A stretch of 64,000 nt of DNA from Candidatus Curtissbacteria bacterium RIFCSPLOWO2_02_41_11. GTDB taxonomy: Bacteria; Patescibacteriota; Microgenomatia; Curtissbacterales; GWA2-41-24. Each line of letters starts with the position of its first letter. Position 1 is the stretch's first letter. Positions 1-46,564 of this stretch are shown here, one piece after another. Position numbers and translations under genes: made by a program. The stretch spans positions 1,683-65,682 of the forward strand of contig MFBU01000007.1 in NCBI GenBank assembly GCA_001775055.1, given 5' to 3'. The notes beneath the pieces are model-generated. The model was not told where the DNA came from. It worked only from the letters and a program-made list of their open reading frames with translations, and made no database searches.

Positions 1-60
1 TTTATGAATTTTAGCCCTTGATACCCGTGGTACCCTTGGCACTTGTGGTACCCTTAAATC

Positions 61-4008: not shown

Positions 4009-4524
4009 GTCAACTCCTTTCTTAAATATCACTTTCATCGCATGCTTATGTGTCATTTTAATCAGTCTGCCAACCCAAGTGGCCAAGGCAAAAAAACTCG
4101 ATGTACCAACAACTACTTTATTGACGATAGTTCCCGCAACTTTTTGATGTAACCCTTTTTTATATTCATCTTCTGAAATTGGTAAGTTAATTGTGGTACC
4201 GCTTCTGACAACTTCATCAGCCTGCTCTTGAGGAACTTTTACCCCACTGTCTGCAACATCAGGGGCCAGTTTTGGCTCAGGCCTGGCAAGCCTTGCCTCT
4301 GATATTGCACTTTGAATTGCCTTTTCCGCCTGTTCGTCTGCTGCCTCGCTGGTTCTAATAACTTCTGAGAGGATTTTCCCCTCTTCGGCTTTAGTTTCCT
4401 GCGATGTTGGCTCCTGCTCTTTTGCCTTGACAGCACCCATCTTATCATCCGGCGGTTGTACCGGTTGGGCGGCAGTTGAGTCACCATCAGCCTGGCTCTT
4501 TAAATCTGTGGCAGTATCGGACAT
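4006..4524 (-). CDS. hypothetical acidic low-complexity protein with C-terminal hydrophobic segment
   Basis: 172-aa ORF directly upstream of the VirD4-like ATPase on same strand; no recognisable domain. Confidence 0.35.
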   Translation of the reverse strand: MSDTATDLKSQADGDSTAAQPVQPPDDKMGAVKAKEQEPTSQETKAEEGKILSEVIRTSEAADEQAEKAIQSAISEARLARPEPKLAPDVADSGVKVPQEQADEVVRSGTTINLPISEDEYKKGLHQKVAGTIVNKVVVGTSSFFALATWVGRLIKMTHKHAMKVIFKKGVD

Positions 4525-4554
4525 TGAAGTAATTATATCAAGAGCGGAGCGAAT

Positions 4555-4650
4555 GATACATCAGAGGAGCGCACTGAGTTTATCGCACTTCGACATTGCT
4601 CAGTGCGACTCTGAGCTAATCGAAGAGTCGAAGGGCGATCTGCTGATATA
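4555..4650. repeat. family-A MITE-like repeat, copy 1 (TIR 'atacatcagaggagcgc' ... 'ggcgatctgctgatata')
   Basis: terminal inverted repeats shared with copies at 9623-9686, 37171-37256, 46578-46636; internal hairpin 'gcactgag..ctcagtgc'. Confidence 0.7.
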
Positions 4651-4781
4651 AAATCAGTAAGATTTTGAGCTTTGCGAGAAAACTAAAATATATCAGAAGA
4701 AACTTAATATATCGAGGTAACTTCGGATAGTTAAAATAATTCCCAAATTTACTCAGCTTAATTTCAATGTAAAAAAATCTT

Positions 4782-5105
4782 TTAACGGATAAAAAAATAT
4801 GACAGAAACCCCGGCGCTAACATAATCATAAAAAAGACTGCTATTAGAAGCAATGTTAAACCAATTCCAATAAATAGTTTTTTAAAACCTTCTCTCCGAT
4901 TTTCACTTGTGTCGGGAGTTCGAAAGAAAAATGAATATATCCAGAAGATAATAAAGAAAACAAGTGTTAATATCGGAGAGAAAATTATAAAACGCAAACT
5001 GCAGAGTGAATCACTAGGTTCTCCGAAACAATTCAACCATGCAACTATGGAACCAATTATAAAACCTAGAACAACTGATATTATCGCATTGAAAAAAATA
5101 TTCAT
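4782..5105 (-). CDS. hypothetical small membrane protein
   Basis: 107 aa, 3 predicted TM helices. Confidence 0.3.
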   Translation of the reverse strand: MNIFFNAIISVVLGFIIGSIVAWLNCFGEPSDSLCSLRFIIFSPILTLVFFIIFWIYSFFFRTPDTSENRREGFKKLFIGIGLTLLLIAVFFMIMLAPGFLSYFFIR

Positions 5106-5149
5106 TTTATTAAATTTATCCTATATTATAGTCACAACACTATCGGAGT

Positions 5150-5890
5150 CTAACGAGCTCTAGCACTTTTTCTCAAAAACAAAAAGTCGTAAATTAAGCC
5201 AAAAATACTGCCGGTTGCCGGACCGATTATCCAAACAGCAAGATTGCTGTAAGATTGCGAAATAATCAAAGGCCCGAAAGCCCTTGCCGGATTAAGAGCT
5301 GCTCCAGTTAAAGAACCTGCAAAAATTGCAGAAACTGTCAGCACCAGACCAACAACCAAAGGACCAAAGCTAACCGCTCCTCGCTTATCAACCATTGTGG
5401 CAAAAACTGCCAATACTAAAATTGCCGTTAGTATTGCTTCAATAACTACCGCTATTTTTATACTCACTCCCGCCCCGATCACTGGTCCCCCCAGCGAAAA
5501 CTGGCGAGCATCAGGCCCGAATATCCAAAGCAATACCCCAGCGGCAGCCAAACTTGCCAAAAGCTGGGCTATTATATAAAAACTAGCTACTCCCCCATTG
5601 ATTTTTTGCGAAAACCATATAGCCAAAGTTACTGCCGGGTTTAAATGGCCGCCTGATAAATGAACAACGGCATAAATCATTGAAGTTAGCGCCAGTCCTG
5701 TCGCCAATGCCACTCCAACACCACCTATATCATTAAAGAAAATATTGGTAAGTGTTGCACCGGAAGCTATAAAAACGAAAACAAAGGTGCCTAAAAATTC
5801 TGCCAAATATGCCCGCCAAGGCGTAAACCAAGATTTCAAAAGAGATTTAACCATAATCAGATTAGAACACTCACCAGTAACAGTTGTCAA
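5150..5890 (-). CDS. aquaporin / MIP family channel (AqpZ/GlpF-like)
   Basis: two NPA motifs ('SGGHLNPAVT', 'GAALNPARAFGP'), 6-TM architecture; true start probably at the internal Met ~5854. Confidence 0.85.
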   Translation of the reverse strand: MTTVTGECSNLIMVKSLLKSWFTPWRAYLAEFLGTFVFVFIASGATLTNIFFNDIGGVGVALATGLALTSMIYAVVHLSGGHLNPAVTLAIWFSQKINGGVASFYIIAQLLASLAAAGVLLWIFGPDARQFSLGGPVIGAGVSIKIAVVIEAILTAILVLAVFATMVDKRGAVSFGPLVVGLVLTVSAIFAGSLTGAALNPARAFGPLIISQSYSNLAVWIIGPATGSIFGLIYDFLFLRKSARAR

Positions 5891-7670: not shown

Positions 7671-7770
7671 TTCTTCCTAAATCACCTCCCTTGCCCTCCC
7701 GACTTGTCCGCCAAAACTTTAGTGTCGGCGGAAGCTTTATGCGAAGGAGGGTTTTTCCATAACCAATCAC

Positions 7771-7821
7771 TTTAACAAAATTTAAAAGGGTAACGCAAGG
7801 GTTTTTAAACACGGCCCGCGG
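7771..7821. repeat. family-D repeat (right arm)
   Basis: see 6611-6670; adjacent 7728-7760 also carries the 'gaagctttatgcgaagga' 18-mer shared with 44199-44216. Confidence 0.5.
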
Positions 7822-8689
7822 ATCCAAATACCTCAATTTTCGCCTCAACCACTGCCGCCACCGCCAAAATTACATCCGGCACAAGCTTATACATTGCGTA
7901 TTCATCAGGATTCTCAGCCATTTTCTCACTCAAAGCATCTTTATATTCCTGCCGCAGTTCCGTATTGACATTAATTTTGACAATTTTGCCAACCTCAATC
8001 GCGCGCCTGACTTGATCAGCCGATATCCCAGATCCGCCATGCAGCGAAAGAAAAGTATTAGGCAGTGACTTGCGAATTCTTGCCAAAAGGTCAAGATCTA
8101 AATCCGGTTGAGTTGGGAAAACTCCATGGACATTGCCAAAAACCGCAGCCATTATATCGACACCGGTTTGAGATACAAACCGCGCAGCCTTCAGCGGATC
8201 AGTATATGATTTATGAAGTGCCTCAAAATCAATCTCCTCATTATGAACCACACTTGAACCGGCAATTTTGTCAATCTCTCCTTCGACAAGAACCTGCCTG
8301 CCGGCAGGCAGGGCCTTTGCATGCGCCGCTTCAATTACTTTTTTGCAACCACTGATGTTCTCTGAAAACTCAAGTTCTGAACCATCAAAGTGGATTAGGT
8401 CGAAACTTGACTGATCAATTGCTTGCATACAATCTTCAACCTTTTTTGCATGGTCCAGATTTAAAAGAATCGGAATGCCGTATTCCTCTCTCGCGTTGAC
8501 TACCAGACTGACAATATTTTTTAATCCAAAATATTCCACCTCACCTGACGAAAATTCCACCATCACCGGCGATTTTTTGCGCTGAGCCGCCACACAAATC
8601 GCCTTAAAAATATCTAAATTATCCGCATTAAACGCCCCGATAGCAAAACCATCTTGTTGAGCTTTCTCAAACCATTCTCTTACAGTCAT
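7805..8689 (-). CDS. fba: class II fructose-bisphosphate aldolase
   Basis: 294 aa; 'FAIGAFNADNLD' N-terminus and 'HGGSG' zinc-site region typical of class II ketose-bisphosphate aldolases; carries palindrome 'cctgcctgccggcaggcagg' in-frame ('LPAGRQ'). Confidence 0.85.
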   Translation of the reverse strand: MTVREWFEKAQQDGFAIGAFNADNLDIFKAICVAAQRKKSPVMVEFSSGEVEYFGLKNIVSLVVNAREEYGIPILLNLDHAKKVEDCMQAIDQSSFDLIHFDGSELEFSENISGCKKVIEAAHAKALPAGRQVLVEGEIDKIAGSSVVHNEEIDFEALHKSYTDPLKAARFVSQTGVDIMAAVFGNVHGVFPTQPDLDLDLLARIRKSLPNTFLSLHGGSGISADQVRRAIEVGKIVKINVNTELRQEYKDALSEKMAENPDEYAMYKLVPDVILAVAAVVEAKIEVFGSAGRV

Positions 8690-17634: not shown

Positions 17635-17642
17635 AGTTATTA

Positions 17643-17742
17643 AATTTTCAATTTATAATTCTCAATTTTCATTGAAATTCAAATGTTTAAATTTTAAAAA
17701 TTTAGTATTGATTAAAAATTTTAAATTTCAAATTAAAAATTT
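17643..17742. repeat. family-F AT-rich repeat copy 2
   Basis: see 14725-14795. Confidence 0.55.
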
Positions 17743-18635
17743 ATCGCTTGATAACCTTTATTTTCTATTTCCCTTGCAAGCGATAATCTTCCCGATTTAA
17801 CAATCTTCCCCTCCACCATCACATGCACAAAATCAGGTTTTAAGTATTTGAGGATTCGAGCGTAATGGGTTATTAGAAGGACGGATGAACGCGGATTATT
17901 AAATCTAAACTGATTAATCGCGGATGAGACAAGCTTAAGTCCATCAACATCAAGTCCAGAGTCAATTTCGTCCAAGATCACCAATTTCGGCGAAAGGGCC
18001 ATCATTTGCAAAATTTCACTTCTTTTTTTCTCTCCCCCGGAAAAACCTTCATTTAAAGAGCGCCGCAGGAAATCATCAGAAAGTCTTAAAGACGAAGCGT
18101 ATTCAAGTAGTTCCTGACGAAATGCTGAAAGACTGCGGGTGGCAGTGGCGGAGGGGGTCCCATCGAGCGCCCGCAGACCAACCAAGGATTGTTGATTGCG
18201 TTTCGAATTAGACTTGGTCGAGGACGTCGGATGGGACGAGCCGCTGACAGGACCCGAAATCGATTGCTTTGCTCTTCTTAAAACATTAAACACGCTGACC
18301 CCCGGCACCTCTACTGGATGCTGAAATCCCAAAAAAATCCCCAATTTTGCCCGTTTGTCCGGAGTTAATTTTGTAATATCCTCTCCGTTAAATGTTATCG
18401 GTGAACTGCTTGCCCCTCGAAGCTTTAGCGGAGTGGGGTCAATTGTGAATTGCGGGGCACCCGCAATTACCTGTGCCAGCGTGCTTTTGCCACTGCCATT
18501 TGGCCCCATCAACACATGAAGTTCGCCAGCCTTGACCTCAAGGTCAATCCCTTTTAAGATCTCCTGCTTGCCCGCCATAACTTTAGTGGAGGTGGAACCT
18601 TTGATTGAAACTTTTAAATTGTTAATTTTAAGCAC
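17733..18635 (-). CDS. sufC: Fe-S cluster assembly ATPase SufC (with ~128-bp in-frame repeat insertion)
   Basis: Walker A 'GPNGSGKST', ABC signature 'GFSGGEKKR', Walker B 'LVILDEIDSGLD', H-loop 'ITHY'; likely GTG start at 18635 preceded by AAGGAG (ORF track extends to 18695). Confidence 0.9.
   Translation of the reverse strand: MLKINNLKVSIKGSTSTKVMAGKQEILKGIDLEVKAGELHVLMGPNGSGKSTLAQVIAGAPQFTIDPTPLKLRGASSSPITFNGEDITKLTPDKRAKLGIFLGFQHPVEVPGVSVFNVLRRAKQSISGPVSGSSHPTSSTKSNSKRNQQSLVGLRALDGTPSATATRSLSAFRQELLEYASSLRLSDDFLRRSLNEGFSGGEKKRSEILQMMALSPKLVILDEIDSGLDVDGLKLVSSAINQFRFNNPRSSVLLITHYARILKYLKPDFVHVMVEGKIVKSGRLSLAREIENKGYQAINF
18133..18260. repeat. dispersed element inserted in-frame in sufC (same family and frame as 27346-27484 in tkt)
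   Basis: shares 'tgcgggtggcagtgg...gagg' start and 'ctgacaggacccgaaat' end with tkt copy; encodes 'ISGPVSGSSHPTSS...SATATRS'. Confidence 0.7.
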
Positions 18636-18811
18636 CTTCTCTCTCCTTTCCTTTACCTGCCTCTGCCCAAGCACGTGTTCCCTGAATTTCCGCAAGCGGA
18701 CGCAAAGTTAAACCCGTTCCTTCTTCAAGCCTGCGTCTTGACTGACCCCAAACCATTAAAGCTATCCGTCTCTGTGCCGCCTGTTGTTGACAAAGTGTAT
18801 TTTCAATTCTT

Positions 18812-24139: not shown

Positions 24140-24215
24140 CTACCTCCACCTCGGGGGAGTCAAAGCCTGCCTACCGGCAGGCAGGTCCACCCCCAAGGTG
24201 ATTGCATATATGTAG
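24140..24215. repeat. GC-rich palindromic element ('cacctcggggg...gcctgcctaccggcaggcagg...cccccaaggtg')
   Basis: nested inverted repeats; the 'cctgcc..ggcagg' palindrome recurs at 8293, 35496, 51116. Confidence 0.5.
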
Positions 24216-25841: not shown

Positions 25842-27881
25842 TTACCCCAAAATTTCCCTAACTTTATTAATAATAGAAGAAGCAGAAATTCCTTCCCAGT
25901 CAAGTAATTGATCGGGTTTCCCCGACATCGGCAATTTGCCAACCGCCAGCTTATAAATTTTAACCTTTCCACTTTGGGCAAAAACATTTAAAACCGCATC
26001 GCCAAGACCCCCGTCAAAATAGTGATCCTCAACCGTAATAATCAAATTATTGGTTTGTTGGGCAGATTTTTTGAGGGTTTTCTCATCAATCGGTTTGATA
26101 CTGTAGGCATCAATTACTCTGACTCTAATTCCTTTTTTGGCAAGTTCATCGCAAGCTTTTATCGTCTCAATTAGAGTCACCCCACAGGCAACAATTGTCA
26201 GCTTATCATCTTTACTTGATCTGACAACTTTACTGCCACCGATTTTAAACTCTTCTTTCTGATCATAAATGACAGGTGTTGCTGGTCTGTTTGTGCGAAT
26301 GTAGAAAATGCCCTGATTTTCGGCAGCCAGCGCAACTAGCCGGACACAGGAAACAGCATCAGCCGGATATAAAATCGTACTGCCGAAAATTGAGCGAAAC
26401 ATTGCCAGATCCTCAAGCCCCATTTGTGAAGGGCCGTCTTCGCCGATTGAAACACCGGCATGCGAACCCACAAATTTGATATTGGCACCAGAAATCGCAC
26501 TTATTCTAATTTGATCGGCTGCCCTACTTAAAAAAGCCGCGAAAGTCGAGACAAAAGGAATTTTGCCGCGTTTAGAAAGACCAAGTGCCACACCAACCAT
26601 ATTTTGCTCGGCAATAAACATTTCAAAAAACCGCTCTGGGTATTTTTCTTTAAAAAGTTCAGAATATGTTGAATTCTTGACTTCCGCATCAAGACTGACT
26701 ATACGTGGATCAATCTCGCCAAGTGCAACTAATGCTTCCCCGTAGGCTTTGCGAGTCGGAACCATCTCGCCTAATTGATAATTAACTTTTAATTTTTGAT
26801 TTGTAATTTTGAATTTTGAATTTCCCGACCTCGTCTCGACTCGGTCGAGGACGGGTTGAATTTTGAATTTTTCTGTAGTTGGTTTCTTTATCTCGCTCTT
26901 GATCTCAAAATCAATCTCACCTAATTCTTTTACTGCCTCTTTAAATTGTTCTTCGGATAACGCCTTTCCATGCCAACCTTCCTTATCCTCCAAAAAGCTA
27001 ACACCTTTACCTTTAATTGTTTTAGCAATAATCATCTGGGGTTGACTCGATCCATCTGGCAACAAATCAAGAGTCCGCACAATAGACCTTAGATCGTGTC
27101 CATCTACAAGATGAGTTTGCCAACCAAAAGCCTCAATGCGCTCTTTATATTTATCAACGTCCCAACCAAGCATCGTCTGACCGCTTTGCCCAAGTCTGTT
27201 AATATCAATAATGCCCACCAAATTACCCAGTTTATAATAAGAAGCAAGCTCAACAGCTTCCCAAACTGATCCTTCGCTAGTCTCAGAATCACCCATCAGA
27301 ACGTACACTTTTGGAAGAGTATCACGGGTATCACGAGCTTGAGAATTGCGGGTGGCAGTGGTAGGAGGGTTCCCGACCCCACTTCGCTTCGCTTCGAGGG
27401 GCACAGCAGCGCTATCATCGCTGGCGGGCTTGCCCACCGAAGCTTTAGCGGAGGCGGGAGGGAAACCACTGACAGGACCCGAAATTCTCATCGCCAGTGC
27501 CATCCCAAGACCAATCGAAAGCCCCTGCCCTAAAGAACCGGTTGCCACATCCACATATTTAAAACGGGGAGTCGGATGCCCTTCAAGCGGACTTTCAAAC
27601 TTCCGATAGCCATCTAATTCTTTCTCTGTCAATACTCCAGCTGCAGCATAGAGTGCATAAAGCAGAGGTGAAGCATGGCCTTTGGAAAAAATCACCCTAT
27701 CATTAGCCGAATTTTGGGGATTTTCAAGATCAAATCGCAAGTGATTAAAGAAAAGGGCAACCATCAGATCGGTTGCCGAAAGCGAAGAGGTTGGATGTCC
27801 CGAGCCGGCCTTGGTAGTCATGCGCAAAATATAATAACGAACTAACTTCGCCAGCTTCTCAAGCTTAGCAATATCTGCCAT
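25842..27881 (-). CDS. tkt: transketolase (with two in-frame repeat insertions)
   Basis: 679 aa; ThDP motif 'GDSETSEGSVWEA', 'SHAGVSIGEDGPSQMGLEDLAMFR', N-terminal 'AGSGHPTSSLSATDL'. Confidence 0.85.
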   Translation of the reverse strand: MADIAKLEKLAKLVRYYILRMTTKAGSGHPTSSLSATDLMVALFFNHLRFDLENPQNSANDRVIFSKGHASPLLYALYAAAGVLTEKELDGYRKFESPLEGHPTPRFKYVDVATGSLGQGLSIGLGMALAMRISGPVSGFPPASAKASVGKPASDDSAAVPLEAKRSGVGNPPTTATRNSQARDTRDTLPKVYVLMGDSETSEGSVWEAVELASYYKLGNLVGIIDINRLGQSGQTMLGWDVDKYKERIEAFGWQTHLVDGHDLRSIVRTLDLLPDGSSQPQMIIAKTIKGKGVSFLEDKEGWHGKALSEEQFKEAVKELGEIDFEIKSEIKKPTTEKFKIQPVLDRVETRSGNSKFKITNQKLKVNYQLGEMVPTRKAYGEALVALGEIDPRIVSLDAEVKNSTYSELFKEKYPERFFEMFIAEQNMVGVALGLSKRGKIPFVSTFAAFLSRAADQIRISAISGANIKFVGSHAGVSIGEDGPSQMGLEDLAMFRSIFGSTILYPADAVSCVRLVALAAENQGIFYIRTNRPATPVIYDQKEEFKIGGSKVVRSSKDDKLTIVACGVTLIETIKACDELAKKGIRVRVIDAYSIKPIDEKTLKKSAQQTNNLIITVEDHYFDGGLGDAVLNVFAQSGKVKIYKLAVGKLPMSGKPDQLLDWEGISASSIINKVREILG
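26809..26870. repeat. hairpin element with 15-bp flanking direct repeats, in-frame in tkt
   Basis: 'ttgaattttgaattt' + 'cccgacctcgtctcgactcggtcgaggacggg' + 'ttgaattttgaattt' (TSD-like). Confidence 0.6.
27346..27484. repeat. dispersed element inserted in-frame in tkt (same family/frame as 18133-18260 in sufC)
   Basis: encodes 'ISGPVSGFPPASAKASVGKPASDDSAAVPLEAKRSGVGNPPTTATRNSQ'; also contains 'gaagctttagcgga' shared with 18415 and 7737/44199. Confidence 0.7.
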
Positions 27882-29591: not shown

Positions 29592-30935
29592 ATGTTTTCT
29601 TTAGCCCAAAATTATTTAACTCGTGGGTTTTGGGGTGATGAGGCCTGGACTTCCTTGATTTCCCAACTTCCCTATTTGCAAATGTTAAAGACCACTGCTG
29701 CCGACTTTCATCCTCCAGCCTACTACACAATCGTCGAGATCGTTTATAAATTTTTGCCGCCAACAGAAATAGTCACCCGTTCGATTTCGATCGTCTTCTA
29801 TTTGTTAACTATATTTCTTGTATATAAACTGGCCTCAGAAGTTAAAGGCCCCACCTCCGCTGAAGCTTCGGTGGGCAAGAAACTTTTTGGCATAATTTCG
29901 GCGCTGGTGGTTGCCGCCAATCCGATCTTTTTTATCTACGCTTTTGAAGCCCGAAATTACACCATGTTTGCCTTTGCGGCGACCGGATCCATTTATTTTC
30001 TAATTAAACTTTCTGAAAATTTTAGCTGGCGGGCTGCAGTTGGCTTTGTACTTTTTTCAACTTTGGGAATCTACACCCATTACTACATGTTTTTTATTTT
30101 GGCAGCCCAAGGTCTTTATTTAATTCTTTTTGACCGCAAGATTCTTTTAAAAGTAATCGGTCTTTACATAGTGGTAGCAATTTTATACTTGCCCTGGATT
30201 CCCTTTTTGGCAGGACAAGTTAAGTCAGCTGGTCAAAATTATTGGATCGGAGCAATCGACCAAAGAACTCATTTTGAAGCAATTTTGCGCATTTTTGGTG
30301 GAGAGTTTAAAAATGCTTTTCGACCATTTTTGTTTAGCCTGTCAGTAGCACTTTTGGTCATAGGGTTGATCCAACATGCACTGCGCCACAAGTTTGAGAA
30401 GCCGTATCTTCTAATTTGGCTCTGGGCAACTGTGCCCTTTATTTTGGCAAGCCTGCCTGGCTTGGCCATTGACGGATTAAAATTGCCTTTTCGCCCGATT
30501 TTTTTCTGGCGCTATCTAATCGGCGCGGCAGTTCCTCTTGCCATAGTGATGGTTCATACGAGTGAGAAATTGCCGAAGTATCTGTTTGTAATCTCAATTG
30601 CGGCAATAATCGCATTAAGTATTATCATTGACGCTTTAACTTTTAGCAGATATCCTTACACTTTTCGCCAGGCTTATCAGCAAAAAATATTGCCGAAAAT
30701 TTCCTCCCAAGATAAAATTGTGACGGTTCTGCCATCTTTTGCCGAAGTTGCCTATTATAGGCAGCGATTTGGGATTAAAAACGACTTGATTGTTCTACCG
30801 GAAGGCTTGGTGCAGTTTTCCGGCAAAAGCCTGCTTGACGCCTATGTCGAAAATCAAATAGTGACAATTGACGAAGCACCATCCGGAAATTATTTTGAAC
30901 TAAGACCGGGACCAAGTTTAGTGATTAGAGACTAG
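29592..30935 (+). CDS. GT39/ArnT-PMT-like membrane glycosyltransferase
   Basis: 447 aa, ~11 TM; N-terminal 'GFWGDEAWTS' + periplasmic loops typical of GT-C family 39 enzymes. Confidence 0.55.
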   Translation: MFSLAQNYLTRGFWGDEAWTSLISQLPYLQMLKTTAADFHPPAYYTIVEIVYKFLPPTEIVTRSISIVFYLLTIFLVYKLASEVKGPTSAEASVGKKLFGIISALVVAANPIFFIYAFEARNYTMFAFAATGSIYFLIKLSENFSWRAAVGFVLFSTLGIYTHYYMFFILAAQGLYLILFDRKILLKVIGLYIVVAILYLPWIPFLAGQVKSAGQNYWIGAIDQRTHFEAILRIFGGEFKNAFRPFLFSLSVALLVIGLIQHALRHKFEKPYLLIWLWATVPFILASLPGLAIDGLKLPFRPIFFWRYLIGAAVPLAIVMVHTSEKLPKYLFVISIAAIIALSIIIDALTFSRYPYTFRQAYQQKILPKISSQDKIVTVLPSFAEVAYYRQRFGIKNDLIVLPEGLVQFSGKSLLDAYVENQIVTIDEAPSGNYFELRPGPSLVIRD

Positions 30936-30949
30936 AGACTAGAGTTAAG

Positions 30950-31010
30950 AAAATTATAATTTGAAATTTGTAATTTTTAATGAAATCTTAATTTGAAAAT
31001 TTATCTGATT
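30950..31010. repeat. family-F AT-rich repeat, inverted copy ('taatttgaaatttgtaatttttaatgaaatcttaatttgaaaattt')
   Basis: reverse-complement similarity to 14725-14795/17643-17742. Confidence 0.4.
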
Positions 31011-35464: not shown

Positions 35465-36290
35465 GCGTTAATCGGTTACGAAGCCAGTTTCGTTTACCTG
35501 CCTGCCAAGCAGGCAGGGCGGTTACGTTTTACGTCTGACGCCTCACGATACGGGCGTCGTCACCCTAACCGTCTGACCTTAACCCGCGCTCCTTGCTATC
35601 TCTACCTCTTTTTCAATATCAACGGCAAAAACCCAGGAAAAGTTGGCCGCCACCACAAAAGCTATAATGGCAATCTGCGCATAGGTTACTCCCAGAATCG
35701 TCGAGATAACTAAAAAAGCCACAGAAAGCCAAAGGAAAACGAGCCAAATGGCCGCCTGATGATAAAGGTGGTAACTTGGAGCAACTAAGCTTTCCAAATT
35801 GAGTCGAACTAGTCTGGCATGAAGAGTTGGATGGATGTGGCTTTCATGAAAAAAGTGGGCACGCACCAAAACTATAATTGTGCCCAGGGCGGCTATTGAA
35901 AACATCGCTAAATTCGAATAATTTTCGGCAATAGTGTAATTGGCCAAATCGGTAAAGTGAACAGATGGCAACACCTTAAAAATTTGGCCATTGACAAGAG
36001 TTATGGGCATTTTTAAAAAATAGATGACCAGAAAAAGCCCGAGCATTTTACCAAAGATCAAGGCTGCAGCCGGCATGATCGCCTCATCAATTAACTTGGC
36101 TAGCGATTTGGTGATCATACTCTAAATATAGCAGATTCCGGAAAGCAGATGGTTACGGTGACGATACCCGTTTCGTGAGGCGTTTTGGGTCTTACGTGTT
36201 TATTGGTTTTTACGATTAACGTAACCGATAAACGATACGAGCATCGTGACCCTTCAGCTCTAAACGAAACCCAGGCAAACTGACTTCGCC
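35465..36290. mobile_element. candidate non-autonomous cassette: ~100-bp imperfect inverted repeats flanking one membrane-protein gene
   Basis: left arm 35531-35575 'acgtctgacgcctcacgatacgggcgtcgtcaccctaaccgtctg' is reverse-complement-similar to right arm 36146-36197; outer segments also match ('cgaag(c/t)cagttt', 'cggttacg'). Confidence 0.5.
35579..36118 (-). CDS. hypothetical 5-TM membrane protein (cargo of IR-flanked cassette)
   Basis: 179 aa; no known domain. Confidence 0.35.
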   Translation of the reverse strand: MITKSLAKLIDEAIMPAAALIFGKMLGLFLVIYFLKMPITLVNGQIFKVLPSVHFTDLANYTIAENYSNLAMFSIAALGTIIVLVRAHFFHESHIHPTLHARLVRLNLESLVAPSYHLYHQAAIWLVFLWLSVAFLVISTILGVTYAQIAIIAFVVAANFSWVFAVDIEKEVEIARSAG

Positions 36291-44126: not shown

Positions 44127-44139
44127 TAAAAAATCCCTC

Positions 44140-44225
44140 CTTCGCCAAGGCTACGGAGGGTAAACCCCCTTCGCCACAACTATTGGAGGGCTCGCTCTCC
44201 GAAGCTTTATGCGAAGGAGAGCCCG
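44140..44225. repeat. pyrG-leader hairpin repeats ('ccctcc...ggaggg', 'gctctccgaagctttatgcgaaggagagc')
   Basis: 18-mer 'gaagctttatgcgaagga' identical to 7737-7754. Confidence 0.55.
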
Positions 44226-44361
44226 CCAATATTCTCTCAAAGCCAAGTTTGGCTTGTCAACCCCGAACAAAGTTTGGTCGTAAAGTTTTTTTCCTTAAAT
44301 ATCGTTGTTGAGATTAGATTCGGAGTTAGACGACTGTTTGATTACTATACTTTGTACGGGG

Positions 44362-44802: not shown

Positions 44803-44857
44803 TTGGCTGAATTATACTATGAGATGCTAGAATGTCAAGTTTAGCTTCTTAATCCTC

Positions 44858-44940
44858 TTTTGATACTCCCCCATCACCCACTCCTGAGTATCTTGCGGGT
44901 GGAACAAGAGTTGGTGGTCCCCTATTTTTTCGGGTGGTGA
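44858..44940 (-). pseudogene. orphan duplicated 3'-end fragment of the nucleotidyltransferase gene (45677-46564)
   Basis: ~85 nt ~80% identical to 45728-45812; translates to 'EKIGDHQLLFHPQDTQEWVMGEYQKR' vs 'EKIGKHQLFFHPQNTGEWVMEEYQKR'. Confidence 0.5.
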
Positions 44941-45396
44941 TTATTGAGGTCTTAACAACTGTATTGGCAATTGTTTAAAGCTTTTCAATCGGCGATCGCT
45001 GGTTACAAACACGTCAGCTCGTGCCTGAAGGGCCGTTGCCAGTTGAATGGAATCAGCTAGGGAAAATTGATATTTGCGCCTTATGTCTGCTGTCGTTATT
45101 GCAATGTTGTTATCAACAGGAACAATGACAAGAAAAGAAATTGCCAGAAATTCTTCTTGGAGGTGACTTCTTAGGACAGGTGCTTTGTTGGTAGCAAGTA
45201 ATTCTGCCAAGGTAATGGCACTGGTCACTACAGTCGTTCGCTCAAGGGAAAACTTGCGGAATAACTCTCTGACTATTGGTCCAAAGCGAGGATGTTTTTG
45301 GAAAAAGTAAATGAAGATATTGGTATCTATGGCAACTGTATGGAAGCTATTTACTAAAGCTCTTTTCAAATTTCTGGAGTTTTTCTTCCCACTCAT
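44941..45396 (-). CDS. vapC: PIN-domain toxin VapC
   Basis: 151 aa; 'VAIDTNIFIYFF', 'TSAITLAEL', 'FVTSDRRL' PIN acidic residues. Confidence 0.75.
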   Translation of the reverse strand: MSGKKNSRNLKRALVNSFHTVAIDTNIFIYFFQKHPRFGPIVRELFRKFSLERTTVVTSAITLAELLATNKAPVLRSHLQEEFLAISFLVIVPVDNNIAITTADIRRKYQFSLADSIQLATALQARADVFVTSDRRLKSFKQLPIQLLRPQ

Positions 45397-45629: not shown

Positions 45630-45680
45630 CCAAGTCAGACTTGGTATGACAATACTACCAATTTTTGTCATACCTGTCAA
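45630..45680 (-). promoter_or_regulatory. vapBC promoter (TTGACA-17-TAGTAT) with 10-bp inverted repeat GGTATGACAA/TTGTCATACC and 'ccaagtcagacttgg' palindrome
   Basis: seen in sequence directly upstream of vapB ATG. Confidence 0.5.
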
Positions 45681-46564
45681 TTAGGAATAACTGCATTATT
45701 TTTTAGTTTAAGCTTAATCAGCCGCTTTTGATACTCCTCCATCACCCACTCTCCAGTATTTTGCGGGTGGAAGAAAAGTTGGTGTTTGCCGATTTTTTCA
45801 GTGGTGATTTTGGGGTGCATATACCAGAGTTGAAAGTTTTTGAGAAAACTTTCAACAGTTCGTAGTAAGTAGTTAGTAGTTGGTAGTTTCTTTTTCTCTG
45901 ATCTATGATCTACAACCCCAAAATTAACTTGCCAATTCGGAAGGAATTTATATATCCATTTATTAGCATCGATAAATCGTCGGTAAGTCTTGTCCCGATC
46001 CCAAATTGGTTTCATTTGACAAATTTCGTGGGCAAGATAGAGATTTTGGGGACTGATTTTAAGGTCTGATTCGTCGATAAGGACATTAAGGCAAGCTCGA
46101 TCTGCAACTTTTTGACCCTTGACATCTCTTTTAAACGGCACGAGCAAAATGTTTGCCACAAAACGGGTTGTCCAGAGAGTATTTTGGGAGGTTATTAAAA
46201 CCAAATCAATATCATCATTTTTGTGACTGTTTTGCATGGCCAAAGCACCTGATATCGCCATCAACTTTAAAGTCGGAATGATTTTCAGAACTTTAGCAAA
46301 AAAAAGGGCTTTTTTGAATTTGAACTTTGAATATTTTTGCCTTTGCTTGCGCAGGCTGACGATTTGTATTCGACCCTTGAGAAAATAATATTGGCCTTTT
46401 TGGCCAATTTTTGATGACTTCGTCAAAATCAATAATTCTTTGGCGACTGCATCGAGTTTGCTCCTCTTCCCTATTAAATATTGATGGACTTCTTGAACAG
46501 TCAGTGGATAATCGAAAATGTCATGGTAGGCGAAAGTGGCTAGGATTGACTGCGACAAGGTCAT
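45677..46564 (-). CDS. Pol-beta-superfamily nucleotidyltransferase (GS-x10-DxD motif), function unknown
   Basis: 295 aa; 'ISGALAMQNSHKNDDIDLVLI' (G[SA]...DhD) and downstream 'LNVLIDESD'; carries family-C repeat in-frame (45857-45895). Confidence 0.5.
   Translation of the reverse strand: MTLSQSILATFAYHDIFDYPLTVQEVHQYLIGKRSKLDAVAKELLILTKSSKIGQKGQYYFLKGRIQIVSLRKQRQKYSKFKFKKALFFAKVLKIIPTLKLMAISGALAMQNSHKNDDIDLVLITSQNTLWTTRFVANILLVPFKRDVKGQKVADRACLNVLIDESDLKISPQNLYLAHEICQMKPIWDRDKTYRRFIDANKWIYKFLPNWQVNFGVVDHRSEKKKLPTTNYLLRTVESFLKNFQLWYMHPKITTEKIGKHQLFFHPQNTGEWVMEEYQKRLIKLKLKNNAVIPN

Follow-up and report, generated by a model that had tools for sequence, protein, structure and literature searches.

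In-frame palindromic repeats in essential genes have so far been treated as essentially a peculiarity of Rickettsia. The passages on the Rickettsia palindromic elements in two publications (PMC10969869, PMC1779305), which summarise Ogata et al. (2000, 2002), describe RPE-1 to RPE-10 as dispersed, hairpin-forming palindromes of 100–150 bp that abound in a small, reduced genome, both in its intergenic regions and within protein-coding genes that are unrelated to one another and often essential. Copies in genes are always in-frame and encode a conserved peptide that is considered to fit the host fold; those passages report no transposase of their own and give the mechanism of spread as unknown. 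RPE copies lose repeat identity over time, according to a passage in PMC6649704 that cites Claverie and Ogata (2003). A further comparison set is formed by the bacterial MITEs Correia/NEMIS, ERIC and QMITE1/2 of Coxiella (PMC10969869, PMC5896051). REPs are 20–40 nt long, extragenic and tagged with GTAG or CGTC at one end (PMC3733652). Mitochondrial coding palindromes occur in Nematomorpha, where template switching or repeat conversion has been discussed as the means of their maintenance (PMC6649704).

Here we analyse a 64,000-nucleotide stretch of DNA (the window) from Candidatus Curtissbacteria, a CPR/Microgenomates bacterium, in which a palindromic element lies inside sufC and inside the transketolase gene tkt. 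The first-pass annotation had likened the two segments to RPEs, as a dispersed DNA repeat inserted in-frame and tolerated in essential proteins, and every test that we ran supports this description. The segments are probably RPE-like, non-autonomous selfish hairpin elements, mobilised in trans and translated with their host genes. An unrelated family would then do likewise across a large part of the CPR, in genomes of ~1 Mb thought to be streamlined, and offer a further system, independent of Rickettsia, in which to ask how selfish DNA colonises core proteins and whether new protein segments arise from it. A full-text literature search found no description of such elements for CPR, Patescibacteria or Microgenomates.

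The element resembles RPEs in its dispersed size of ~100–150 bp, its hairpin, its genic in-frame and intergenic copies and its predicted surface-loop position. It differs in its hosts (Patescibacteria/CPR versus Rickettsiales), in forming GC-rich islands in a 42% GC genome, in arms that are ~80–100% identical at orthologous sites where RPEs are reported to lose identity, and in having both a 4-bp box that is hypervariable yet compensated and interior hairpins that can be exchanged or nested. We regard it as RPE-like by functional class and do not file it as an RPE; host phylum and GC content make sequence homology unlikely.

With MITEs the element shares small size, lack of autonomy and hairpin folding, and its termini may be likened to their imperfect inverted repeats; MITEs too show occasional in-frame ORF fusions. 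In-frame insertion inside core genes is, however, the rule for the CPR element and the exception for MITEs; furthermore, target-site duplications are not detectable, the fetched loci contain no parent IS with the same ends, and what is conserved are the internal asymmetric loops, not terminal inverted repeats. Like REP/BIME-RAYT and IS200/IS605 systems, it is an imperfect palindrome with neither classical terminal inverted repeats nor target duplication, shows a strand or orientation bias and nests palindromes within palindromes; the mechanism of IS608 is the basis for likening it to IS200/IS605-derived elements through recognition of a folded single strand. It differs from REPs in its length of ~120 nt, its first bases CGGGTCC and its mostly intragenic location, with no RAYT or TnpA linked to it, and from both systems in that its 4-nt variable box pairs across the hairpin and not with a flanking cleavage site. 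Mobile GC clusters or ‘byps’ of yeast mitochondria are likewise GC-rich palindromic mini-elements in AT-rich genomes, coding regions included. The ribosome skips byps, and their frame need not be kept, whereas frame preservation in the CPR element argues for read-through translation. The Nematomorpha palindromes are also long inverted repeats in essential genes whose arm identity is apparently actively maintained (PMC6649704), but they are perfect, gene-specific inverted duplications of coding sequence rather than a dispersed consensus family, and have neither conserved bulges nor intergenic copies.

The sufC and tkt inserts

Both inserts lie on the minus strand and run in the direction of their host genes; they share one reading frame, ISGPVSG...TATR. 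The sufC gene (Fe–S assembly ATPase; 17733–18635, minus strand), whose likely start is the GTG at 18633–18635 although the listed ORF extends to 18695, carries three palindromic inserts. One of these is the element at 18136–18256 (minus strand), a full-length match to covariance model R1 (66.6 bits, E 3.4e-15) that encodes the peptide (S)GPVSGSSHPTSSTKSNSKRNQQSLVGLRALDGTPSATATR. The tkt gene (25842–27881, minus strand) encodes 679 aa, compared with ~613–625 aa in insert-free orthologues, and its element at 27349–27481 (minus strand; R1, 79.8 bits, E 1.3e-18) encodes (S)GPVSGFPPASAKASVGKPASDDSAAVPLEAKRSGVGNPPTTATR. For the window, the model was built from copies in other genomes only; it identifies these two copies (E 3e-15 and 1e-18 in round figures) and has no further match in the 64 kb. 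The extents first proposed, 18133–18260 and 27346–27484, mark copies of one family, with their best boundaries at the positions given above.

The two copies share their ends. On the plus strand, the common 3′ end CTGACAGGACCCGAAAT occurs exactly twice, at 18244–18260 and 27469–27485 (chance expectation 0.10), and the other common end, beginning with TGCGGGTGGCAGTGG, occurs at 18134 and 27347 only (chance expectation 0.00). Both segments are GC-richer than their surroundings, at 0.63 (sufC) and 0.66 (tkt) versus ~0.42 for the window, and fold with energies of −44.3 kcal/mol (z −2.26) and −63.4 kcal/mol (z −4.03), respectively.

In their middles the segments are not homologous, and the interior modules differ. 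The first-pass annotation had placed gaagctttagcgga inside both copies. This motif lies within the tkt element (27439–27452), but in sufC it falls at 18419–18432, outside 18133–18260 and 160 nt from the element, within an independent 30-nt mini-palindrome (18409–18438) that is read in another frame. In tkt the inner ‘type-c’ hairpin module (27429–27458, minus strand; CCCGCCTCCGCTAAAGCTTCGGTGGGCAAG, read as PASAKASVGK) is homologous to such stand-alone 30-nt mini-palindromes, and type-c interiors are also present in elements of other host genes (loci L006, L037, L072 and L082). A ‘hallmark 18-mer’ reported at 7737–7754 and 44199–44216 does not mark further copies. The sequence common to these intergenic sites, GAAGCTTTATGCGAAGGAG, is a different hairpin repeat, which we assign to another family because only ~9–10 nt match the inner module of the tkt element.

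Alignment to solved structures indicates that both inserts are extra to the canonical proteins. SufC residues 150–203 align with only residues 112–129 of 2D2E, and the segment is also extra relative to 2D3W SufC and to Curtissbacteria SufC orthologues of 241–243 aa. Tkt residues 130–191 align with residues 138–148 of human TKT. The placements proposed earlier are correct, the SufC insert lying between the Q-loop and the signature motif and the Tkt insert before GDSETSEG. AlphaFold (AF2) models, a check that the first-pass annotation had proposed, put both inserts in predicted disordered loops between regular secondary-structure elements. In SufC, pLDDT is below 50 at residues 125–169, with a confident helix or strand on each side; in Tkt it is below 50 at residues 137–187, between a helix (120–134) and a strand (192–197).

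The SufC insert segment includes GPVSGSSHPTSSTK. Examples of tryptic peptides inside or spanning the Tkt insert would be ASVGKPASDDSAAVPLEAK and SGVGNPPTTATR.

Hairpin architecture and covariation

The canonical unit is ~120 nt long (modal anchor length 116 nt), with CGGGTCC as its first bases and CCACCCG as its last, and forms a long imperfect hairpin in which copies fold end to end. The hairpin is layered from base to apex. The base is a stem, CGGGT/ACCCG, followed by an invariant asymmetric loop with unpaired CCT and T on the 5′ arm and C on the 3′ arm. The third layer is a helix, CA-NNNN-T/A-NNNN-TG, whose 4-bp ‘box’ is hypervariable between copies while its complementarity is kept. A second invariant internal loop (TTCC / CCCTTCC) separates this helix from a stem YTCCCG/CGGGAR, beyond which an exchangeable interior hairpin forms the apex. 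As inverted repeats the ends are imperfect, with a conserved 2–3-nt asymmetry (ATTTCGGGTCCTGTCAGTGGT versus ATTGCGGGT--GGCAGTGGT), and they belong to the full-length hairpin rather than being discrete terminal repeats. Interiors are swapped, nested or deleted freely, leaving stubs down to 34–53 nt.

Pairing across the arms shows strong compensatory covariation. Paired positions make up 90.3% of cells, compared with 76.4% in shuffles and 30–50% with slid partners, and double-change cells number 124, compared with 42.5 in shuffles, a value reached in 0 of 500. In three of five measures, covariation exceeds that of all 500 shuffles. The four box pairs are 91–98% Watson–Crick (31–54% when shuffled), with 4–6 pair types each. 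Where the right end (RE) was located independently of the box, complementarity is perfect in 59 of 72 boxes, with one mismatch in 12 and two in 1, and 34 different boxes occur among the copies. The tkt copy pairs GTGG in the left end (LE; 27466–27469) perfectly with CCAC in the RE (27358–27361). In the sufC copy, GCGG (LE, 18241–18244) faces CCAC (RE, 18145–18148) with one C·A mismatch, and the L001 allele of this element has a perfectly paired box, GCGG/CCGC. All four copies in the MFCA01 genome carry the box GTCG, at non-orthologous sites.

Some copies extend the hairpin outward with copy-specific stems, also within genes: runs of at least 6 bp occur in 15% of copies versus 1.3% in the control. 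In tkt the outer stem GAGAATTTC/GCAATTCTC reaches to about 27341–27489. We considered whether such stems are inverted duplications of host flanks; comparisons in FolC (L084/L042) and TopA (L057/L008) are suggestive but ambiguous, and the idea was not adopted.

Distribution of the family

The family is native to, and widespread in, Microgenomates-type CPR bacteria. In a one-genome-per-species collection, the LE pattern GGGTCCTGTCANNNNTTTCCYTCCC matches 79 loci, nearly all from Curtiss-, Levy- or Roizmanbacteria, WWE3 or unclassified Patescibacteria. Model R1, which was trained on 29 copies, detects 94 in the 625 kb of loci fetched. Within genes the family occupies ~42 distinct sites and every one of the six reading frames, and it also occurs at intergenic positions. 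Its hosts include SufC, Tkt, ValRS, ArgRS, TopA, Obg, FolC and polyprenyl synthetase, the last six of which were named by eye from ORF translations. An exhaustive profile search with 20 insert peptides recovered at least 38 representatives at E ≤ 1e-3, a count that comes with no annotation, and a word-indexed search with the same 20-peptide profile returned 4 short ORFs only, which was uninformative. At Rfam gathering thresholds, the window and six element-rich loci yield one tRNA and no match to the element. The LE pattern has 0 matches in viral contigs, and thus gives no sign of phage carriage.

The element accounts for a share of the ‘CPR-specific’ low-complexity insertions and length inflation, Tkt orthologues ranging from 595 to 722 aa and SufC orthologues from 241 to 334 aa. 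This bears in practice on annotation, HMM coverage, phylogenomic alignments and structure prediction of CPR proteins.

Turnover and conservation of the arms

Occupancy changes among alleles and orthologues. Allele L001 and many orthologues lack the tkt copy; at this site L001 carries a different insert, (ATGTCAA)n, in a region of only ~82% local identity. Tkt orthologues have the element at either of two different sites or not at all, and SufC orthologues show three insertion hot spots. ValRS of L023 carries an element where the ValRS of the window has other sequence. In polyprenyl synthetase, a metagenome scan confines the element to the closest lineage; the closest relatives all carry it, and the next relatives (54–59% identity) have a loop that differs in length. 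Neither at tkt (L001) nor in ValRS or polyprenyl synthetase did a near-identical strain provide a clean empty site.

At orthologous sites the arms are 78–100% identical, while third-codon identity of the host genes is near saturation (0.39–0.57). Such conservation is unlike a decaying selfish fossil and calls for repeated re-insertion, for gene conversion or for a function at host level. Part of it is ascertainment, because copies were collected with the LE pattern fixed and at most two mismatches allowed in the RE. Entropy of the RE arm in genic copies is 0.27, 0.36 and 0.24 bits at the three codon positions, so third positions are not freer than first or second positions. The conservation is at the level of nucleotides, not of the peptide.

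These observations could also be read as a structured element that serves the host, in mRNA or in single-stranded or cruciform DNA, as a site for a host protein, held by purifying selection and only secondarily spread; we consider this possible but improbable. Among its conceivable, similarly doubtful roles are mRNA stabilisation, 3′-end formation, RNase III-type regulation and a site acting at the DNA level. Nucleotide-conserved arms at sites where synonymous positions are saturated, the covarying box and third codon positions as constrained as the rest all fit such a role, and two invariant asymmetric loops around a helix whose sequence varies but whose pairing is kept form the pattern of a protein-recognised hairpin. 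The bias of orientation to transcription fits as well: genic copies number 49 forward and 10 reverse, copies lacking a spanning ORF 12 co-oriented and 4 opposed, and many of the latter class begin 0–20 nt past a co-oriented stop codon. A host signal is, on the other hand, hard to reconcile with insertion at arbitrary points inside unrelated genes, in every frame and either orientation, with presence that varies between alleles and close lineages, and with interiors that can be exchanged or reduced to stubs; it has no Rfam family, and the ascertainment noted above weakens the conservation argument. We doubt that the hairpin is a protein-recognised nucleic-acid signal under purifying selection within essential CPR coding sequences. 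If it were, a regulatory or processing element would sit in-frame in core genes, for example as the target of an RNA- or ssDNA-binding or cleaving protein acting on mRNAs or the chromosome at the hairpin, and the repeat-derived peptide would be a by-product.

Reading frames and probable translation

A census of copies and frames, suggested in the first-pass annotation, reveals a strong frame bias. Among 82 copies analysed, 59 are genic, with 46 read in one frame (F0) and 13 in the other five (F1/F2, 3; R0–R2, 10), and 23 have no spanning ORF. The 46 F0 copies lie in long ORFs with the frame GPVSxF[LP]PASA...LRAVGNPSTTATR; all preserve the frame and none contains a stop codon. Their anchor length is 2 mod 3 in 46 of 46 cases, which becomes divisible by three when the two conserved nucleotides beside each end are included. 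Copies with no spanning ORF fall into all three residues mod 3 (8/4/10, hand tally). The F0 peptide is hydrophilic and rich in Gly, Pro, Ser, Thr and Ala, and the sufC and tkt inserts are low-complexity segments of 40–45 residues. These frame statistics suggest that the insert is translated.

The same statistics bear on the idea that the insert is an intervening sequence absent from the protein, through RNA removal (intron-like, bulge-helix-bulge, or RNase excision and religation), ribosome bypass or a mini-intein. A strong hairpin does juxtapose both ends, and insertions in rRNA genes are a known feature of CPR bacteria. All 46 F0 copies are nevertheless frame-preserving and stop-free while copies outside ORFs take any length, and this argues against excision or bypass because a removed segment would be under no such constraint. 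The low-complexity peptide also lacks intein motifs and the length that an intein needs, and there is no match to Rfam intron or ribozyme families. We consider removal of the insert very unlikely.

Neither of the two outcomes that the first-pass annotation had named as refuting its reading was borne out. That the segments are lineage-specific protein loops with no DNA-repeat relationship, a reading to which the recurrence of the GPVS...TTATR motif at the same loop of many Tkt and SufC orthologues might point, is effectively refuted. The nucleotide-level repeat relationship is clear: the same DNA occurs between genes and, in six frames, encodes unrelated peptides in dozens of unrelated proteins; third codon positions are not relaxed; and base pairs covary between codons ~100 nt apart. 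The 30-nt mini-module is likewise read in two different frames. An assembly artefact, in which repeats misled the assembler of this metagenome-assembled genome into chimeric joins, is extremely unlikely, since insert-bearing genes recur in independent NCBI, JGI, ENA and Logan assemblies (an identical insert-bearing Tkt protein is recorded from 27 NCBI, JGI and ENA contigs, the independent ENA assembly L002, 96% identical overall, has an identical element, and another element copy is identical across three JGI metagenome contigs) and every genic copy has intact frames on both sides.

Proposed mode of mobilisation

For a selfish element mobilised in trans, we envisage that copies insert as DNA anywhere, in both orientations and also between genes. 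Selection would then retain only those genic insertions whose length is divisible by three, that are free of stop codons and that fall in permissive surface loops. Surviving genic copies would mostly share the one frame that yields a hydrophilic peptide rich in Gly, Pro, Ser, Thr and Ala, and the insert would be transcribed and translated with the host protein as a disordered loop. Mobilisation may depend on an enzyme for which the two conserved asymmetric loops are the recognition features of the folded single strand. With no target duplication, ends that belong to a hairpin and a biased orientation, the simplest guess is a mechanism like that of IS200/IS605 or REP/RAYT. Either selection for the ability to transpose or quasi-palindrome (template-switch) correction could keep the box and outer stem paired.

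Searches for the expected traces of transposition gave the following results. No target-site duplication of at least 3 nt was found, with at most 9 of 81 copies (k = 3) or 5 of 81 (k = 4) showing a direct repeat at any boundary offset. The fetched loci contain no LE...RE pair around an ORF that could be an autonomous copy; where an LE match lacks an RE nearby, it marks a contig end, a degenerate copy or, in one case, a chance match (Marispirochaeta, L046). No transposase or other mobilising enzyme was found among the 20 of ~72 window ORFs scanned. The conserved loops, the barcode-like compensated box and the absence of target duplication together suggest that a mobilising or binding protein could be found by phylogenetic co-occurrence. 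Other interpretations were rejected. The box is neither a target-site duplication nor an IS608-style guide, because boxes are inverted, not direct, and pair across the hairpin. Integron attC sites, DGRs and CRISPR repeats do not apply either, as no R/L boxes, A-specific variation or arrays were seen.

Mini-palindromes in the window

The R1 element is just one among several palindromic insert families in these genes. The stand-alone mini-palindrome at 18409–18438 (minus strand) in sufC gives (D)PTPLKLRGA(S) in frame +1; it matches the inner module of tkt at 26/30 positions, yet is read in a different frame. Exactly these 30 nt are missing from the L001 allele, and the segment appears as 6+4 gap columns in the alignment to 2D2E. 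The corresponding residues 69–76 have a pLDDT below 50 in the AF2 model of SufC. No target-site duplication was found at the empty sites of the mini-modules.

A second, more diverged 30-nt mini-palindrome in sufC (18567–18597, minus strand; frame 0, STSTKVMAGK) belongs to repeat family D4 and corresponds to a 30-nt gap in the L001 allele. Its site is a hot spot, with related inserts such as PSSAKASEGK and PASTKVTAGK in many SufC orthologues. A further 30-nt copy lies at 29850–29879 (plus strand), read as PTSAEASVGK, in a PMT_2-family glycosyltransferase gene (29592–30935, plus strand; Pfam assignment via the identical gene in L001). It is 93% complementary to 27429–27458, and its orientation and frame relative to coding are those of the tkt module.

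Two copies of a palindromic element in sufC and tkt

The window contains exactly two matches to R1, a covariance model of the large element built from 29 copies, none taken from the window. One lies in the transketolase gene tkt (ORF 25842-27881, minus strand) at 27349-27481(-) and scores 79.8 bits; the other lies in sufC (ORF 17733-18695, minus strand; likely start the GTG at 18633-18635) at 18136-18256(-) and scores 66.6 bits. The first-pass annotation had proposed that these segments are copies of one dispersed element inserted in-frame into otherwise canonical proteins, and this interpretation is supported. The observation behind it is partly confirmed, with its core right and two details wrong. 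The shared end, CTGACAGGACCCGAAAT, occurs exactly twice in the window, at 18244 and 27469 (0.10 expected), and the opposite end, TGCGGGTGGCAGTGG..., only at 18134 and 27347 (0.00 expected). Relative to solved structures, the sufC segment adds ~36-40 residues after the Q-loop and ahead of the signature motif, and the tkt segment adds ~51 residues between helix GLGMALAMR and strand KVYVLMGDSE. Their GC contents are 0.63 and 0.66, respectively, against ~0.42 for the window. The 'internal gaagctttagcgga' that the segments were said to share is located in sufC at 18419-18432, 160 nt outside the segment and in a separate 30-nt insert. Likewise, the intergenic sites at 7737 and 44199 belong to another hairpin repeat, and GAAGCTTTATGCGAAGGAG is common only to those two. 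The middles of the sufC and tkt copies are unrelated.

In the AF2 models, the Tkt insert (residues 137-187, pLDDT ~26-31) forms a disordered loop between the helix at 120-134 and the strand at 192-197. The SufC insert (residues 125-169, pLDDT below 50) is modelled as a disordered loop between confident elements, and a SufC mini-insert at residues 69-76 likewise has pLDDT below 50. The window Tkt is 100% identical to the protein of the RIFCSPHIGHO2_12_41_11 record (27 contigs in NCBI, JGI and ENA).

Distribution of the family

Among 33 orthologues of Tkt from Curtissbacteria, lengths vary between 613 and 722 aa, and many contain the peptide GPVSxF(L/P)PASA...(L)RAVGNPSTTATR, which is absent from others and is found at two sites, the loop equivalent to that of the window or the inter-domain linker. 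At the DNA level, six genes of this type contain conserved left and right ends (LE and RE) around a variable middle. In every copy the reverse complement of a 4-nt box in LE is found in RE; the pairs are GTGG/CCAC, GTCG/CGAC, ATTC/GAAT, GTAG/CTAC and ACAG/CTGT.

A scan with the pattern GGGTCCTGTCANNNNTTTCCYTCCC, using one genome per species, identified 79 loci, nearly all labelled Curtiss-, Levy- or Roizmanbacteria, WWE3 or Patescibacteria. Some metagenome-assembled genomes are labelled uncultured Gammaproteobacteria, Nanoarchaeia or Saccharimonadales, which we suspect are mislabels. A Marispirochaeta match to the LE pattern has no RE and is probably due to chance. The fetched loci contain 94 R1 matches; no Rfam family corresponds to the large element and no viral contig matches the LE pattern.

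Architecture and covariation of the hairpin

The canonical anchor is 116 nt (20 copies), or ~120 nt including two conserved flanking nucleotides per side, with the consensus cGGGTCCTGTCA-NNNN-TTTCCyTCCCGCCAGTGCTCGCTCGA...TCGAGCTGCGCGCTGTCGGGAaCCCTTCCA-NNNN-TGCCACCCg. The fold runs from end to end. Its outermost layer is the stem CGGGT/ACCCG, followed by a conserved asymmetric loop with unpaired CCT and T on the 5' side and C on the 3' side, the helix containing the box, and a conserved internal loop (TTCC/CCCTTCC). The inner stems YTCCCG/CGGGAR and CAGTGC/GCGCTG lead to an interior hairpin at the apex. At least three interchangeable interior types are found, of which type c includes the 30-nt module noticed earlier in tkt. 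Some interiors contain further nested small palindromes and others are deleted to stubs of 34-53 nt.

Covariation statistics computed on our own structure give 90.3% paired cells, compared with 76.4% after shuffling and 30-50% after sliding the partners, and 124 double-change cells compared with 42.5 (0/500 shuffles equally high). The box pairs are each 91-98% Watson-Crick (31-54% shuffled), and their columns have entropies of 1.2-1.8 bits next to adjacent columns near 0 bits. With RE located without reference to the box, boxes are perfectly complementary in 59/72 copies and have one mismatch in 12/72, the chance of a perfect match being 1/256; there are 34 different boxes. The nucleotide immediately beyond each end pairs in 96% of copies. 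Copy-specific flanks prolong the stem in a minority, with runs of at least 6 bp in 15% versus 1.3% of controls. In the window tkt copy the outer stem is GAGAATTTC/GCAATTCTC.

Reading frames and probable translation

Long ORFs span 46 of 82 copies in F0, the forward 'GPVS' frame, 3 in the other two forward frames and 10 in the three reverse frames (e.g. GGxSGRxPDSA...RRALAGGKLLTGP); the remaining 23 lie outside any spanning ORF. When orthologous sites are collapsed by eye, ~32 of ~42 genic sites are in F0, against one in six at random. Further hosts, identified by eye from translated ORFs, are DNA topoisomerase I, ArgRS, ValRS, Obg, FolC and polyprenyl synthetase. The anchor length is 2 mod 3 in 46/46 F0 copies, and becomes a multiple of three when the two conserved flanking nucleotides per end are counted, whereas copies with no spanning ORF are distributed over all three residues (8/4/10, hand tally). 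Because lengths preserve the frame in F0 and take any residue outside ORFs, the genic inserts appear to be read through by the ribosome, neither excised nor bypassed. The element is conserved at the level of its nucleotides, with an RE-arm entropy by codon position of 0.27/0.36/0.24 bits in genic copies.

L025, a fetched locus, has three R1 matches on one strand within ~1.1 kb (4395-5478(-)), the pattern-found one in a single long ORF, and two proteins from the representative search (P0245, 545 aa; P0246, 1038 aa) have 3-4 stretches fitting the insert profile.

Gain, loss and possible recent spread

The window and L001, a contig of the same population, share 99.9% identity over window 35246-27487 (7.7 kb), after which identity is ~82% for at least 12 kb. 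The drop starts ~50 nt upstream, in the coding sense, of the tkt element (window ~27540; L001 ~7710), which suggests a recombination mosaic with a breakpoint adjoining an insertion hot spot. In the diverged segment the tkt element is absent, with (ATGTCAA)n encoding CQMSNVKCQMW in its place (L001 7761-7800), and both 30-nt sufC mini-modules are missing; the sufC large element is retained with its box perfectly paired. The heptamer is found at the same Tkt loop in element-free alleles, with repeat inserts there in P0002, P0005, P0006, P0009, P0011 and P0023. Other orthologues have RDTRDTL-type repeats (GATACCCGT units) at that loop, a type also present beside the window tkt element (27315-27339) and similar to window 13-37.

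SufC orthologues (241-334 aa) have three insertion hot spots; some possess the element, and in others it is replaced, cut to a stub (GPVSGFPATTATR) or missing. The ValRS gene of L023 has the element and that of the window has none; polyprenyl synthetase carries it in the closest lineage only, identically in three JGI contigs. Where the L091 polyprenyl synthetase loop reads ...VAGGPSTALRIKR..., an element-free orthologue has GGCCCTTCGACTGCG, which faintly resembles a collapsed LE/RE stub; this could be what is left of an old copy, or a chance likeness.

The four copies found in MFCA01 (Curtissbacteria RIFOXYA1_FULL_41_14; L040, L048, L051 and L057) sit at sites unrelated to one another, one of them intergenic, two in F0 and one reverse, and all carry the box GTCG; boxes are mixed in other genomes. 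Recent amplification of a single master would give this pattern, and the box may mark the lineage of the master copy like a barcode.

Proposed mobilisation, and arm conservation

No target-site duplication was found for the large element, no autonomous copy in the fetched loci and no transposase among the 20 window ORFs scanned. Copies in genes are oriented forward in 49 cases and reverse in 10; those without a spanning ORF are co-oriented with flanking genes in 12 and opposed in 4, often starting 0-20 nt past a stop codon. Given these absences, the orientation bias and the hairpin ends, we infer that the folded single strand would be mobilised in trans, by an enzyme acting much as those of IS200/IS605 or REP/RAYT do. 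Such an enzyme would recognise the two invariant asymmetric loops; on this view the box would serve as a spacer helix, whose sequence could drift freely provided pairing holds.

Host third-codon positions are 0.39-0.57 identical between orthologous sites, near saturation, while the RE arm, only partly ascertained, is identical at 21-27/27 positions and boxes differ with compensation. Arms this sharp fit poorly with a purely selfish model. They could reflect repeated re-insertion into permissive loops, gene conversion from active copies or, with fairly low probability, a host-level function of the hairpin.

Comparison with known systems

Rickettsia palindromic elements (RPEs), as described in PMC10969869 and PMC1779305, are palindromic, both intergenic and in-frame genic, and encode a conserved peptide, with mobilisation undefined. 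The large element resembles them in size, palindromy and placement, in encoding a conserved peptide, in its predicted compatibility with protein structure and in its undefined mobilisation. On these likenesses the RPE class is the closest analogue; in our view the large element functions in the manner of an RPE, and we do not file it as one, homology being unlikely. RPEs are reported to decay (PMC6649704), whereas the arms of the large element stay sharp. It lacks two defining features of a MITE, target duplication and a parent IS, and differs from a REP, defined as a short extragenic palindrome with a GTAG/CGTC tag (PMC3733652). Full-text searches of an incompletely covered literature turned up no elements of this kind described for CPR, Patescibacteria or Microgenomates, and we provisionally consider the element unreported in CPR. 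Protein-coding palindromic repeats are a known kind whose occurrence in this phylum was previously not known, and the architecture here is unusually clean and open to testing.

Other repeats and side observations

The 30-nt GC-rich mini-palindromes (CCCNCCTCCGCTAAAGCTTCGGTGGGCAAG) are a family of exactly 30 nt, separate from the large element and in-frame. In sufC they occur at 18409-18438(-) and 18567-18597(-), each read in a different frame; another lies in a PMT_2 glycosyltransferase gene at 29850-29879(+), and one forms the interior of the tkt large element at 27429-27458(-). No target duplication was seen at the empty sites of the sufC pair in L001.

Palindromes of a third family, CCTGCC(T)GCCGGCAGGCAGG, are intergenic at 24166-24188 and 35497-35526, and one lies in-frame as ALPAGRQV at 8293-8315, inside a class II fructose-bisphosphate aldolase gene (7805-8689(-)). 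This palindrome is nested in the large element of other genomes (L042, L050; peptides ...LPAGRQ...). The tkt inter-domain linker (26779-26855) contains an AT-rich stretch similar to repeats that lie between genes at 17638-17673 and 30946-30981, and a 32-nt GC palindrome (CCCGACCTCGTCTCGACTCGGTCGAGGACGGG); together they read as KFKIQPVLDRVETRSGNSKFKITNQKLKV, with AF2 pLDDT below 50 at residues 334-362. Their position within coding sequence indicates that intergenic-type repeats also become translated.

The intergenic '18-mer' of the first-pass annotation corresponds to GC-rich hairpin repeats at 7680-7755 and 44130-44230, which have GAAGCTTTATGCGAAGGAG and CCCTCCTTCGC...GGAGGG arms in common; downstream of them lie a cupredoxin gene and a 546-aa ORF. 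Inverted repeats of 38 nt (35538-35575 and 36146-36183, 87% complementary) surround ORF 35579-36118(-), which encodes 179 aa with no Pfam match; this arrangement may represent a small unit able to move or invert. In L003, a pair resembling a diversity-generating retroelement (bAvd and reverse transcriptase, 4637-5707) lies ~4 kb upstream of a Tkt gene with two elements, a proximity that is probably coincidental. One copy of a 92-nt direct repeat (82% identity), at 44840-44931, closely follows a PIN-domain gene (44941-45396); the other, at 45708-45799, is within ORF 45677-46564.
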